From positions 149,188 to 213,187 of the forward strand of contig DASYTJ010000087.1 in the NCBI GenBank assembly GCA_036002325.1: a stretch of 64,000 nt of DNA, in the 5' to 3' direction. Each line of letters opens with the position of its first letter. Position 1 is the first letter of the stretch. Origin of the DNA: Thermoanaerobaculia bacterium. GTDB lineage: Bacteria > Acidobacteriota > Thermoanaerobaculia > Multivoradales > UBA5704. This document shows positions 10,748 to 15,801 of the stretch, piece by piece. A program made the position numbers and the translations under genes. Below the pieces are notes generated by a model. The model was given only the letters and a program-made list of their open reading frames with translations, ran no database searches and was not told the origin of the DNA.

Positions 10748-10902
10748 CGTCGCGCAAGAAGTCGCGATATCCTTCGGGACCTGAGCCGGACGCGTTCCAG
10801 GCGGTTCTCGGGACGCTCGGGCTCGGGCATGACGATGTTCTCCGCCGAGCCTCATCCTATCCCTCTGGACAAGTCTCCGCCGACTGTCCCGGAGGCGAGG
10901 CC

Positions 10903-13900: not shown

Positions 13901-15801
13901 AGGTGGCCGTGCGCTGCCGCATCCCGGAGCGCGAGAGCCGCGACTTGCAGGACGTCGTGCTGGAGATCTCCAACTTCGAAGAGGCGGGTGTCGTGCTGCG
14001 CTTCCGCAAGCCTTCCGAGGCGCCTCTGAAGCCCCTGCGCGAGTATGCCCAGAAGGTGGTGGACCTGCGGCGCCGGGGTCTCCCCTATCCTTATGAAGTG
14101 GTCAAGCGGCTCGCGCCGTCGCAACGCGACGCCCAAGCGGATCTGCCCGCCGGTGAGTTCATCGAGCACGATCTCGACGCCGAAGGCCGCCTGGTGCCGG
14201 TCGACCGTCCTTATGGGCGCAACACGGCCGGCGTCGTCCTGGGGCTCGTCCGCAACTTCACCAGCCGGTATCCCGAAGGAATGACCCGCGTCATTTTGCT
14301 GGGAGATCCCAGCTTCGGCCTTGGCGCGCTGGCGGAGCCCGAGTGCCGCCGGATCCTCGCCGCCCTCGACCTCGCCGCAGCCCTGCGCGTGCCGGTCGAG
14401 TGGTTCGCCCTTTCCGCTGGCGCCAGGATCTCCATGGACGACGGCACCGAGGCCATGGACTGGATCGGCCGCGTGCTGCGCCGCATCGTCGAGCTCACGC
14501 AAGCGGGCGGCGAGATCAACGTCATCGTGGCCGGCGTCAACGCCGGGGCCCAGCCCTACTGGAACGCCGAGGCGACGATGCTGATGCACACCCGCGGCAT
14601 CCTCGTCATGACTCCCGAAGGGGCGCTGGTGCTCACCGGCAAGCAGGCGCTCGACTACTCCGGCGGCGTCTCGGCGGAGGACAACCAGGGGATCGGCGGT
14701 TACGAGCGCATCATGGGACCCAACGGCCAGGCGCAGTACTTCGCTGCCGATCTCGGCGAGGCCTGCCGCATCCTGCTGCGCCATTACGAGCACGCTTATG
14801 TGGCCCCGGGGGAACGTTTTCCCCGGCCGTGCCCCACCCGCGATCCGCGCGGCCGCGACGTCCGGAGCTTCCCGCACGGCGGCGAGTTCGAGACCATCGG
14901 CGAAGTCTTCTCTTCCGCGACCAATCCGGGGCGCAAGAAGCCGTTCGAGATCCGACGCGTCATGGAGGCCGTCTCCGACCAGGACCATCCACCGCTCGAA
15001 CGGTGGTATGGAATGCGCGACGCCGAGATCGCCGTGGTCTGGGATGTCTGCCTCGGCGGCCACCCCGTGTGCCTGCTTGGCTTCGAGTCGAAACCGCTGC
15101 CGCGGCTCGGCTCAGCACCCGGTTTCGGCCCAGAGCAATGGACGGGCGGCACTCTCTTCCCGCTGGCCTCGAAGAAGATAGCGCGGGCCATCAACGCGGC
15201 GAGCGGCAACCGGCCGCTGGTCGTGCTCGCCAACCTCTCGGGATTCGACGGCTCGCCCGAGTCCATGCGCCTCTGGCAGCTCGAGTACGGCGCCGAGATC
15301 GGCCGTGCGGTCGTGAACTTCAAGGGACCGATCGTCTTCTGCGTCGTCTCGCGCTACCACGGCGGCGCCTTCGTGGTCTTCTCGAACGCGCTGCACGACA
15401 ACATGGAGGTGGCGGCGCTCGAAGGGGCCTACGCCTCGGTGATCGGCGGCGCGCCGGCCGCCGCCGTCGTCTTCGCCCGCGAGGTGGACCGGCGGGCGCG
15501 GCAAGACGCGCGAGTCGTGGGCCTGGAGAAGGAGACCGGCGAAGCCGAAACGAGCGACAAGGCGCGGCTCCGCGCCCGGCTCGTGGAGACTCTGGAAACG
15601 GTGCGTTCCGAAAAGTTGAGCGAAGTGGCCGAGGAGTTCGACGGCGTCCACAGCATCGAGCGGGCGCGCGAGGTGGGCTCAGTCCACCACATCGTGGCGC
15701 CGGAACGGCTGCGGCCTTACCTCATCGAGGCGGTGGAGAGGGGGATGGCGAAGGAGGCGGTAGGTGGCGCTGCTACCAGCGAGGCTCCCCGGCCCAGGTA
15801 G
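10903..15801 (+). CDS. Eukaryote-type multidomain acetyl/acyl-CoA carboxylase-like protein (partial BC, BCCP, central region, carboxyltransferase)
   Basis: 1632 aa from a GTG start with a GGAGG SD 7 nt upstream. The N-terminus aligns to the second half of the biotin-carboxylase ATP-grasp (IEAPVLVDRRGTVW...FTVSFLVEP) plus the BC C-terminal subdomain. A biotinyl EAMKME motif lies at ~aa 410. The C-terminal third is an ACC-type carboxyltransferase (VILLGDPSFGLGALAEP...FALSAGARI). Confidence 0.75.
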   Translation: MIQLKAPGVCRIEAPVLVDRRGTVWTPGLLDVTLRYRDRLVLAESPPPGLSSELMRSLREAAARFAGARGAVGAFTVSFLVEPGSGEHRFLGTVTGLPKGIAAVEALDEVDLAALETHLSRGGTLDGQTPDPRGHALQVCLSALDPEEGFAPSPGLVEAMRLPAGPGLRADPATEEGEVPGEEIVRVTAHGRTRAEALDRLQRGLARTEVFLHDGGTDKAFLAEILDRPELTAREPVGPDWVDRLVARGEHLPRRGAEAALLAAAIAGYEAEIDLAKDRFYASAVRGRTEVPKETGRAVELRHRDQDYFFHVARLEWRLFRVEVDGRHLEVLAERPGRTGRRIACGDRSWHVSLAVQGSRLIVEVDGIPHRIERDEGDVVRSPAPAVVVSIRVKVGDEVTAGEPLAVLEAMKMETTVVAQGPGRVRKILARKNAQVATGGPLLVLESPARALGPAALRHEERVRFEALIPAADGTLSPRAESLTEARRLMLGYDADTATVRRLVSGGATGTADDRRVEEEILRAFADVSYLFGRPSTDAAGGDGRHTTEEYLAAFLRDLDTGVEELPQGFLAKLRRALAHYGVGSLDRSPELEESLFRVAISHYRLAQQVPAVLAVLESWLERDDASADSDLRELLDRVIAETQGSEPAVHDLAREVRYRRFDRPVLLSVRERIYAAAEVDLARLAADPGPEERTERIRALVECPQPLHLLLSRRYQSAAPGFKEALLEVMVRRYYRMRELRSIVPTLVEGQLFAAAGYEHRGSHVHLIATHAGHDRLAWSMDAMSRLTAEAPAGSEIVADLYFWRLGRLAEEDGFADTIAALLAEPALPAGLRRVAVVISGPEGSQSFTFRRAAAEGDAFREERVYRGIHPMLALRLELWRLQNFHLERLPAPERVYFFHGVARENPRDERLFSVAEVRDLTPVRDDAGRVVELPQLEHMLMEALAGIRRFQSRRAASQRLQWNRVLLNIWPPVDLQAEELSGLVRRLAPLSEGLGLEKVAVRCRIPERESRDLQDVVLEISNFEEAGVVLRFRKPSEAPLKPLREYAQKVVDLRRRGLPYPYEVVKRLAPSQRDAQADLPAGEFIEHDLDAEGRLVPVDRPYGRNTAGVVLGLVRNFTSRYPEGMTRVILLGDPSFGLGALAEPECRRILAALDLAAALRVPVEWFALSAGARISMDDGTEAMDWIGRVLRRIVELTQAGGEINVIVAGVNAGAQPYWNAEATMLMHTRGILVMTPEGALVLTGKQALDYSGGVSAEDNQGIGGYERIMGPNGQAQYFAADLGEACRILLRHYEHAYVAPGERFPRPCPTRDPRGRDVRSFPHGGEFETIGEVFSSATNPGRKKPFEIRRVMEAVSDQDHPPLERWYGMRDAEIAVVWDVCLGGHPVCLLGFESKPLPRLGSAPGFGPEQWTGGTLFPLASKKIARAINAASGNRPLVVLANLSGFDGSPESMRLWQLEYGAEIGRAVVNFKGPIVFCVVSRYHGGAFVVFSNALHDNMEVAALEGAYASVIGGAPAAAVVFAREVDRRARQDARVVGLEKETGEAETSDKARLRARLVETLETVRSEKLSEVAEEFDGVHSIERAREVGSVHHIVAPERLRPYLIEAVERGMAKEAVGGAATSEAPRPR

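Follow-up and report, generated by a model that had tools for sequence, protein, structure and literature searches.

In the multi-subunit acetyl-CoA carboxylases (ACCs) of bacteria, BC (biotin carboxylase), BCCP (biotin carboxyl carrier protein), and CT (carboxyltransferase) reside on separate polypeptides. Single-chain ACCs are usually viewed as self-contained, with BC, BCCP, and CT on one chain. Some biotin enzymes are known that work without BC, namely transcarboxylase and the Na+-pumping decarboxylases. In Koribacter versatilis Ellin345, an ACC gene separates homologues of pfaA and pfaE in what has been called a 'Type R' cluster (Shulse and Allen, 2011; PMC3098273). Here we analyzed a 64-kb stretch of DNA (64,000 nucleotides, referred to as the window) from a Thermoanaerobaculia bacterium, contig DASYTJ010000087.1, in which a gene on the plus strand (10903..15801) encodes a BC-truncated, single-chain ACC-like protein of 1632 aa plus the stop codon. 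This protein is clearly an ACC derivative, yet it does not have what defines a BC. Our literature search, which covered truncated or BC-less single-chain ACCs as well as ACCs of Thermoanaerobaculia, turned up no account of such a single-chain ACC or of the clade to which this protein belongs, and the only relevant study was that of Shulse and Allen (2011).

The open reading frame (ORF) begins with a GTG at 10903, which is the earliest possible start past an in-frame stop at 10603. A Shine-Dalgarno-like GGAGG (10891..10895, plus strand) that matches the consensus only is located 7 nt 5' of the GTG. An initial annotation made from the sequence alone had proposed this start and this ribosome-binding site, and it had placed the first residues at about position 200 of a BC. 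Both proposals are borne out by the ORF list, the translation, and profile searches. The NCBIfam accC model aligned with aa 11–231 of the protein from profile position 208 to position 431 of 449, and because the alignment begins at position 208, approximately 207 N-terminal residues of BC are absent. The Pfam domain Biotin_carb_N was absent from the protein, the ATP-grasp domain CPSase_L_D2 was found only at aa 11–126 (profile positions 94–209 of 211), and Biotin_carb_C was found at aa 142–234. A complete BC, with N-domain, whole ATP-grasp, and C-domain, is not present. What remains is a BC remnant at aa 1–235 (10903..11607, plus strand) that consists of the C-terminal part of the ATP-grasp and the BC C-domain. 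A scan of 10500–16100 found no sigma-70-like promoter. The protein is identical to a database protein, P0001, on JGI contig Ga0376049_0000077, and proteins of this kind are labelled in databases as 'carboxyl transferase domain-containing protein' or 'acetyl-CoA carboxylase carboxyltransferase component'.

The remnant is followed by the other parts of a single-chain ACC, much as the initial annotation had read them. These are a BT-like domain composed of a long helix and a beta-barrel (aa 236–375; 11608..12027), a BCCP (biotinyl) domain (aa 376–450; 12028..12252; Pfam Biotin_lipoyl at aa 379–445), a central, non-catalytic region (aa ~470–1085; 12310..14157; Pfam ACC_central at aa 830–989), and a CT (aa ~1086–1615; 14158..15747; Pfam Carboxyl_trans at aa 1126–1612), all on the plus strand. 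The BCCP contains an (A/V)MKM-type motif, EAMKME (aa 409–414), in which K412 (12136–12138, plus strand) is the predicted biotinyl lysine. The CT is complete and has the glycine-rich motifs of both halves, SAGARIS (aa 1171–1177; 14413–14433, plus strand) and RYHGGAFVVFS (HGGAF at aa 1486–1490; 15358–15372, plus strand). Judging from the structures of PccB and the yeast CT, these two motifs are presumably oxyanion-hole elements.

The initial annotation had left room for the N-terminal region being a different fold that was misaligned with BC. An AlphaFold2 model of aa 1–470 (pLDDT 90.4, pTM 0.83) argues against this. The model superposed on yeast and human ACC with TM values of 0.72–0.73 and on isolated BC structures at ~1.9 Å over ~245 columns, and because of these superpositions we take the N-terminus to be truly the C-terminal half of a BC fold rather than misassigned. 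Since the remnant was modeled with pLDDT above 90, it is predicted to be folded still. The BT region in the model has a helix at 257–285 followed by strands at 297–374, and aa 236–375 superposed on the yeast ACC holoenzyme, 5csl. Thus, both the BT and the central domains of single-chain ACCs are found, the former by superposition of the model and the latter by the ACC_central match. The best matches among solved structures by sequence were to eukaryotic ACC (E = 1.5e-38), and the match to 5csk covers aa 123–451. As a comparison, the eukaryotic enzymes (yeast Acc1, 5csl/5csk; human ACC1, 6g2d/8xl0) arrange their domains in the same order, with BT and the central domain among them, and are the closest solved structures by both sequence and fold. 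By contrast, identity to them in the N-terminal part is only ~18–20%, the protein in the window is ~600 aa shorter, half of its BC is missing, and the other half appears to be catalytically dead, as described below. We also noted a weak match (E = 1.5e-7) of the BC remnant, aa 10–100 (10930–11202), to profile positions 33–123 of 207 of NCBIfam NF046056, 'BPTD_3102 family carboxylase-like protein'. The members of this family are short and look like the corresponding stretch of the ATP-grasp, which suggests that stand-alone BC fragments occur elsewhere.

To place the protein among its relatives, we used clusters from a protein search (P numbers), a 120-sequence alignment with a neighbor-joining (NJ) tree, and genome loci from other species (L numbers). 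The loci are the best 80 of 596 matching loci and come from 80 different assemblies. Thus, no genome has a second, full-length copy among these 80, but a paralogue with ~50% identity could rank lower. More than 100 clusters had 57–81% identity, and almost all of them were labelled as Thermoanaerobaculia or Acidobacteriota metagenome-assembled genomes (MAGs). Nearly all of the truncated clusters are 1620–1660 aa long, and full-length proteins with a BC N-domain (1847–1905 aa) appeared only at ~53–56% identity. In the alignment, the starts of the short proteins agree within a few residues. They share an N-terminus of ~10 variable residues and then the conserved RRIEAPVLVDRRGT. In the NJ tree, the short forms are monophyletic relative to the full-length forms. 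These comparisons strongly support the idea that the truncated form is a conserved and stably inherited family and not a local accident.

The initial annotation had offered a second reading, in which the gene was truncated at its 5' end by acquisition of a ku/ligD segment. In the JGI gene calls that we used (locus coordinate + 902 = window coordinate), ku lies at 7763..8743 on the minus strand (Pfam Ku) and ligD, a ligase with a primase-polymerase called at 666 aa, at 8747..10747 on the plus strand. The 155 bp that it had counted between the ligD stop (10747) and the ACC-like start codon were confirmed, and this short distance is what favors a recent truncation by insertion or, alternatively, an assembly or frameshift artefact that hides the BC N-terminus. 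However, more than 100 clusters, which come from many samples and have other genes upstream, share this N-terminus. Homologues with 73–77% identity have the identical N-terminus, unrelated upstream genes, and no ku/ligD. In place of the ku/ligD of the window copy, the genes upstream are a FAD_binding_4 gene in P0027, a small unannotated ORF and then a BNR protein in P0009, an unannotated ORF and an MbnB-like gene in P0017, unannotated ORFs in P0020, and a polyketide synthase (PKS) gene in P0054. The same truncation occurs directly after the PKS gene in more distant members, and in P0054 it comes right after the PKS stop codon. Because one N-terminus is combined with such different upstream genes, this synteny comparison refutes ku/ligD as the cause of the truncation.

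Coding sequence for the missing half was not found either. We used residues 1–215 and 1–470 of full-length P0107 as tblastn queries and obtained, apart from the remnant itself, no match to BC in any frame of the 64-kb window (best E-value for the N-half 0.25). The flanks of the truncated loci, 0.9–10 kb upstream, likewise encode no BC N-half in any frame. Nor does the reading frame offer a start codon upstream of 10903 as far as the stop at 10603. An upstream BC N-terminus hidden by a frameshift, which the initial annotation had kept in view, was thus seen neither in the window nor in the flanks of its relatives, and we consider a recent truncation or an artefact to be extremely improbable.

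We compared BC residues using the E. coli AccC numbering, with 14 full-length homologues as the reference. The local contexts in the alignment fit the expected motifs. Ten catalytic residues (H209, E211, K238, E276, E288, N290, R292, Q294, E296, and R338) are invariant in 14 of 14 full-length homologues. Throughout the truncated clade, eight of the ten (K238, E276, E288, N290, R292, Q294, E296, and R338) have given way to other residues. In the window protein the substitutions are K238L, E276S, E288G, N290V, R292G, Q294P, E296G, and R338C. H209 is an Arg in the window protein and in 92 of 106 truncated members, and E211 is retained in the window protein. Neither this protein nor the truncated clade has these eight catalytic residues, which are expected of the BC in a single-chain ACC. 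Judged by these residues, the alignment shows a retained half that would be unable to bind Mg-ATP, bicarbonate, or biotin productively and would be catalytically dead. Because the residues that bind these three ligands are lost, the protein should not be able to form carboxybiotin on its own.

The break is inside the ATP-grasp fold at a sub-domain boundary, which is where one might expect it if the N-terminal half of BC were encoded separately elsewhere and reassembled with the remnant into an active enzyme. Against this, the eight residues lost from the retained half are all needed for catalysis, and there are related proteins that do without the remnant entirely. The loss of these residues effectively refutes a split BC, to which we give almost no credence.

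By contrast, the predicted biotin attachment site and the CT are well preserved. The biotinyl lysine corresponding to K412 is present in 80 of 80 truncated members that have a BCCP domain, and the CT motifs S-x-G-A-R/K-I and RYHGGAFVVFS are present in 79–80 of these 80. We also determined what share of the columns that are invariant in full-length proteins is retained by the window protein. This was 53% for the BC remnant, 74% for BT, 97% for BCCP, 87% for the central domain, and 93% for CT. A similar pattern was observed in identity to full-length P0107. For CT, this was 72–77% in truncated proteins (~74% in the window protein) versus 67–74% in other full-length proteins, and for BCCP it was 50–63% versus 44–67%, which indicates no faster change. 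For the BC half, identity was 39–45% in truncated proteins versus 62–71% in full-length ones, three outliers having 50–55%. These data show that, at the level of sequence, the putative biotin attachment site and the CT are conserved as well as in the full-length enzymes. Pairwise NG86 ratios of nonsynonymous to synonymous substitution (dN/dS) between copies outside of the PKS operon were 0.23–0.31 overall, with the lowest values in CT (0.17–0.24) and values of 0.21–0.26 in the BC remnant, although these values are rough because GC content at third codon positions (GC3) of ~0.86 may affect dS. The whole protein, including the dead BC half, is under purifying selection. With more than 100 clusters, dN/dS of ~0.25, and an invariant biotinyl lysine and CT motifs, the first reading in the initial annotation is strongly supported in one part, that of a natural, and conserved, BC-less form.

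A PKS gene immediately upstream was first seen at two BC-free relatives. In P0083, which has no BC at all, genes for an acyl-CoA dehydrogenase (ACAD), a 2603-aa PKS with the domain order KS-AT-KS/CLF-ACP x2-KR-DH, the ACC-like protein, and a phosphopantetheinyl transferase (PPTase) form an operon with overlapping start and stop codons. When the PKS and PPTase of this operon were used as tblastn queries, the PKS-ACC-PPTase arrangement was found in nearly all of the 80 loci. Full-length loci with this arrangement are from Terriglobia, Vicinamibacteria, Actinomycetota, Myxococcota, and others. Truncated members on deeper branches (P0054, L006, L054, and P0078) are also still in the operon, and P0054 has an intact ACAD-PKS-ACC-PPTase operon. 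The arrangement matches the 'Type R' secondary-lipid synthase cluster with its pfaA-like PKS. The product of that cluster is, to our knowledge, itself uncharacterized. These data show that the family was ancestrally in a PKS-ACC-PPTase operon and that its ancestors supplied this operon, where the ancestral role, judging from the gene order, was probably to supply malonyl-CoA to the PKS.

The ACCs of 'Type R' clusters are direct homologues of the window protein with 53–56% identity over the shared length and the same BT-BCCP-central-CT layout, and the basal truncated members are still located between PKS and PPTase as in these clusters. By contrast, the N-terminal ~207 aa of BC are missing from the window protein, as are most of the BC catalytic residues that we compared, and its gene no longer adjoins a PKS or PPTase. 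The neighbors of the window copy are ku/ligD, a leucine-rich-repeat gene, and glyS, in contrast to the 'Type R' location of P0054, P0078, L006, and L054. For the window copy and for P0027, P0017, P0020, P0009, and P0068, the last of which has no BCCP, neither a PKS nor a PPTase was found within 10 kb. A PKS homologue search listed the contigs of P0054 (251,239 bp) and P0049 (132,776 bp) and did not list contigs of 7.05 Mb, 3.48 Mb, 8.78 Mb, and 144,840 bp, but the query's own protein was likewise missing from the list, so that absence from it carries no weight.

At the P0078 locus, the PKS and the ACC-like gene are set apart by an ~8-kb island with Abi_C, PIN_12, and FGE-sulfatase genes, among others. 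This island is flanked by an ~88-bp direct duplication of the 3' end of the PKS gene (~90% identical; L085:1965-2052 and L085:9910-9997). Since the duplication brackets the island, the final ~30 codons of the PKS are found again directly upstream of the ACC-like start.

Comparison of the sequences indicates that BC was lost independently at least three times. In P0083 (1404 aa) and in L037, the whole BC is deleted and BCCP and CT are kept within the operon. The nearest relatives of the two differ, being P0009 for P0083 and P0039/P0033 for L037. The third case, L073 (L073:2956-7257), is from an Acidobacteriaceae MAG of the Terriglobia (CAWAUN010000001.1). It is 1434 aa long, is devoid of BC, shows 82% identity from residue 462 on to full-length P0109, and lies between PKS and PPTase. 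This loss is independent of the truncation in Thermoanaerobaculia. Together, these deletions show that BC is dispensable in cis, as far as the sequences of P0083, L037, and L073 can tell. The BC-free gene of L037 (1903–7079, from a long-read MAG) is split by a frameshift into ORFs at 1903–3651 and 3651–7079, which is either a sequencing error or a sign of a pseudogene. The loss of BC residues, the ancestral PKS-ACC-PPTase operon, and the repeated losses of BC and BCCP were not visible from the sequence of the window alone.

The explanation that we tentatively prefer, without giving it quite even chances, is that this is a BCCP-CT protein whose own BC is dead and which relies on a BC acting in trans, as in the first reading of the initial annotation. 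The ancestor would have been a single-chain acyl-CoA carboxylase with the order BC-BT-BCCP-central domain-CT, its gene lying between those of an iterative, pfaA-like PKS and a PPTase. Carboxylases of this ancestral type are found in many Acidobacteriota, Actinomycetota, and Myxococcota. Long ago, in the ancestor of the Thermoanaerobaculia-type clade, the first ~207 BC codons would have been deleted, after which the remaining half of BC would have lost the residues that bind Mg-ATP, bicarbonate, and biotin. The protein that resulted would most likely be the carrier and transferase half of an acyl-CoA carboxylase, probably an acetyl-CoA carboxylase. A free-standing BC, for example the housekeeping AccC, would carboxylate its swinging BCCP in trans, and the BCCP would then bring CO2 to the CT site of the same protein. 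In the lineage of the window, the gene has left the PKS operon and now stands alone beside glyS-glyQ-recO. We speculate that the remaining, dead part of BC has been retained as a folded module with a structural function that packs against BT, and, equally speculatively, it may also be a docking surface for the BC partner. A BC acting in trans explains the repeated loss of BC without new chemistry because this is the normal situation in multi-subunit bacterial ACCs. In those enzymes (AccC, AccB, AccA/AccD), BC acts on a BCCP that belongs to another polypeptide, as we propose by analogy here. They differ from the window protein, in which BCCP and CT share one chain with BT, the central domain, and an inactive half of BC.

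Several observations weigh against service by a BC in trans. No gene for a BC partner was found within 10 kb of the operonic relatives, and no other BC, CT, or BCCP gene was found elsewhere in the 64-kb window. The window copy is outside of the operon, and there was no PKS or ACPS match anywhere in the 64 kb. The uncertainty of the dN/dS values noted above also belongs here. In addition, BCCP was deleted in-frame on ~9 separate branches of the NJ tree, which is a rough tree, in a total of 26 clusters. These BCCP-less forms have long branches and decayed CT motifs, yet their ORFs are intact at 1400–1580 aa. Because BCCP is lost and CT decays, many lineages seem to manage without catalysis, and there may be a non-catalytic role.

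This last point leads to the idea that the family is a non-catalytic relic or pseudoenzyme, in which the BT and central domains have a structural, regulatory, or scaffolding role, or which is decaying slowly in a high-GC genome, where ORFs tend to stay open. The BCCP-less forms fit this idea, since their central domain, with 88% of the invariant columns kept, is conserved to the same extent as in the other forms and their CT falls to 83%. The detachment of the window copy from the PKS operon also fits, as does the finding that BCCP-less P0068 and BCCP-bearing P0027 share an upstream FAD_binding_4/Cytokin-bind gene, which lies next to P0027 and at a distance of 8 kb from P0068. However, among the 80 members that have a BCCP, the biotinyl lysine and the two CT motifs show next to no variation, CT has the lowest dN/dS among the domains, and CT and BCCP resemble those of the full-length enzymes as much as these resemble one another. 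This pattern is what continued catalysis would produce, and we consider a relic unlikely, though a serious alternative. A precedent for retained, dead relatives of ACC is provided by the plant BADC proteins, non-biotinylated BCCP look-alikes that regulate heteromeric ACCase. This precedent is relevant to the clade members that have no BCCP and a degraded CT. By contrast, BADCs are without the biotinyl lysine, which is kept by the window protein, a multidomain protein of 1632 aa, and the 26 related clusters delete the whole BCCP domain rather than the lysine.

Another possibility is a biotin enzyme that is independent of BC, in which the BCCP and CT take CO2 from malonyl-CoA or another carboxy-acyl-CoA. 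The outcome would be a decarboxylase or an ATP-independent acyl-CoA:acyl-CoA transcarboxylase, for instance for unusual extender units. BCCP and CT were kept without BC on at least three independent occasions within the PKS operon, no BC gene is present in those PKS operons, and the BC-free biotin enzymes mentioned above provide examples of such chemistry. Transcarboxylase (12S/5S/1.3S) and the Na+-translocating decarboxylases (OAD, MMD, and GCD) resemble the window protein in combining a biotin carrier and a CT-type domain without BC. But they need a 5S acceptor site or a membrane beta-subunit, and the CT in the window is an ACC-type one accompanied by a central domain. Among the genes called within 10 kb of the window gene or its relatives, there was neither a decarboxylase beta-subunit nor a 5S-type transferase, and the other window ORFs scanned likewise yielded no membrane beta-subunit and no 5S-type pyruvate-site transferase. 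Moreover, new chemistry would be needed at each loss of BC, and CT is not accelerated relative to the full-length enzymes. We therefore regard a BC-independent enzyme as quite improbable. In a broader form, the repeated BC loss, at least three times, may mean that these proteins are ATP-independent carboxyl shuttles that use housekeeping malonyl-CoA for starter or unusual extender units and that the BCCP-less forms are possibly a non-catalytic scaffold, which we think is rather unlikely as well.

Should the BC-less forms prove active together with a trans-acting BC, then one protein can service the BCCP domain that a giant ACC carries on another, which bears on fusion versus fission in the evolution of ACC and on engineering the supply of malonyl-CoA for PKS pathways. 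If they are inactive with a BC in trans, they would be either a bacterial pseudoenzyme derived from ACC or a new ATP-independent carboxyl-transfer activity; an ATP-independent shuttle or a non-catalytic scaffold would represent a novel class of function that arose from the ACC architecture of eukaryote type. The clade is a natural deletion series in which half of BC is gone, all of BC is gone, BCCP is gone, and CT is decaying, and the biotin and CT sites are under strong selection through most of it. The family is tied to a widespread, uncharacterized PKS-ACC-PPTase cluster in soil Acidobacteriota.

Downstream of the ACC-like gene, Pfam and the gene calls identified three convergent housekeeping genes on the minus strand, glyS (17570–19678), glyQ (19665–20591), and recO (20610–21371). 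The order glyS-glyQ-recO is also found downstream of P0027 on its 7.05-Mb contig. A gene for a 553-aa leucine-rich-repeat protein (15895–17556, minus strand) lies between the ACC-like gene and glyS and looks like a lineage-specific insertion because it is missing from the otherwise syntenic P0027 locus. Several long ORFs in this region are spurious. Among them are a 1030-aa ORF at 7763–10855 (minus strand) with ku at its 3' end, an 853-aa ligD ORF at 8186–10747 (plus strand) compared with the 666-aa gene call, and an 856-aa ORF at 12493–15063 (minus strand) that is antisense to the ACC-like gene. Long spurious ORFs are expected at ~70% GC and are a trap for an ORF-based reading.

A Pfam scan of the remaining ORFs in the window found only housekeeping and miscellaneous genes and no biotin-related, PKS, or PPTase genes. 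Three consecutive ORFs at 41291–46408 (minus strand; 587, 564, and 525 aa) are large, have a GC3 of ~0.88 that resembles coding sequence, and gave no Pfam match at E ≤ 1e-4. At 28601–29596 (plus strand), a gene for an inward-rectifier-type K+ channel (IRK_C and Ion_trans_2) adjoins an era-corC-7TMR-HD housekeeping block.

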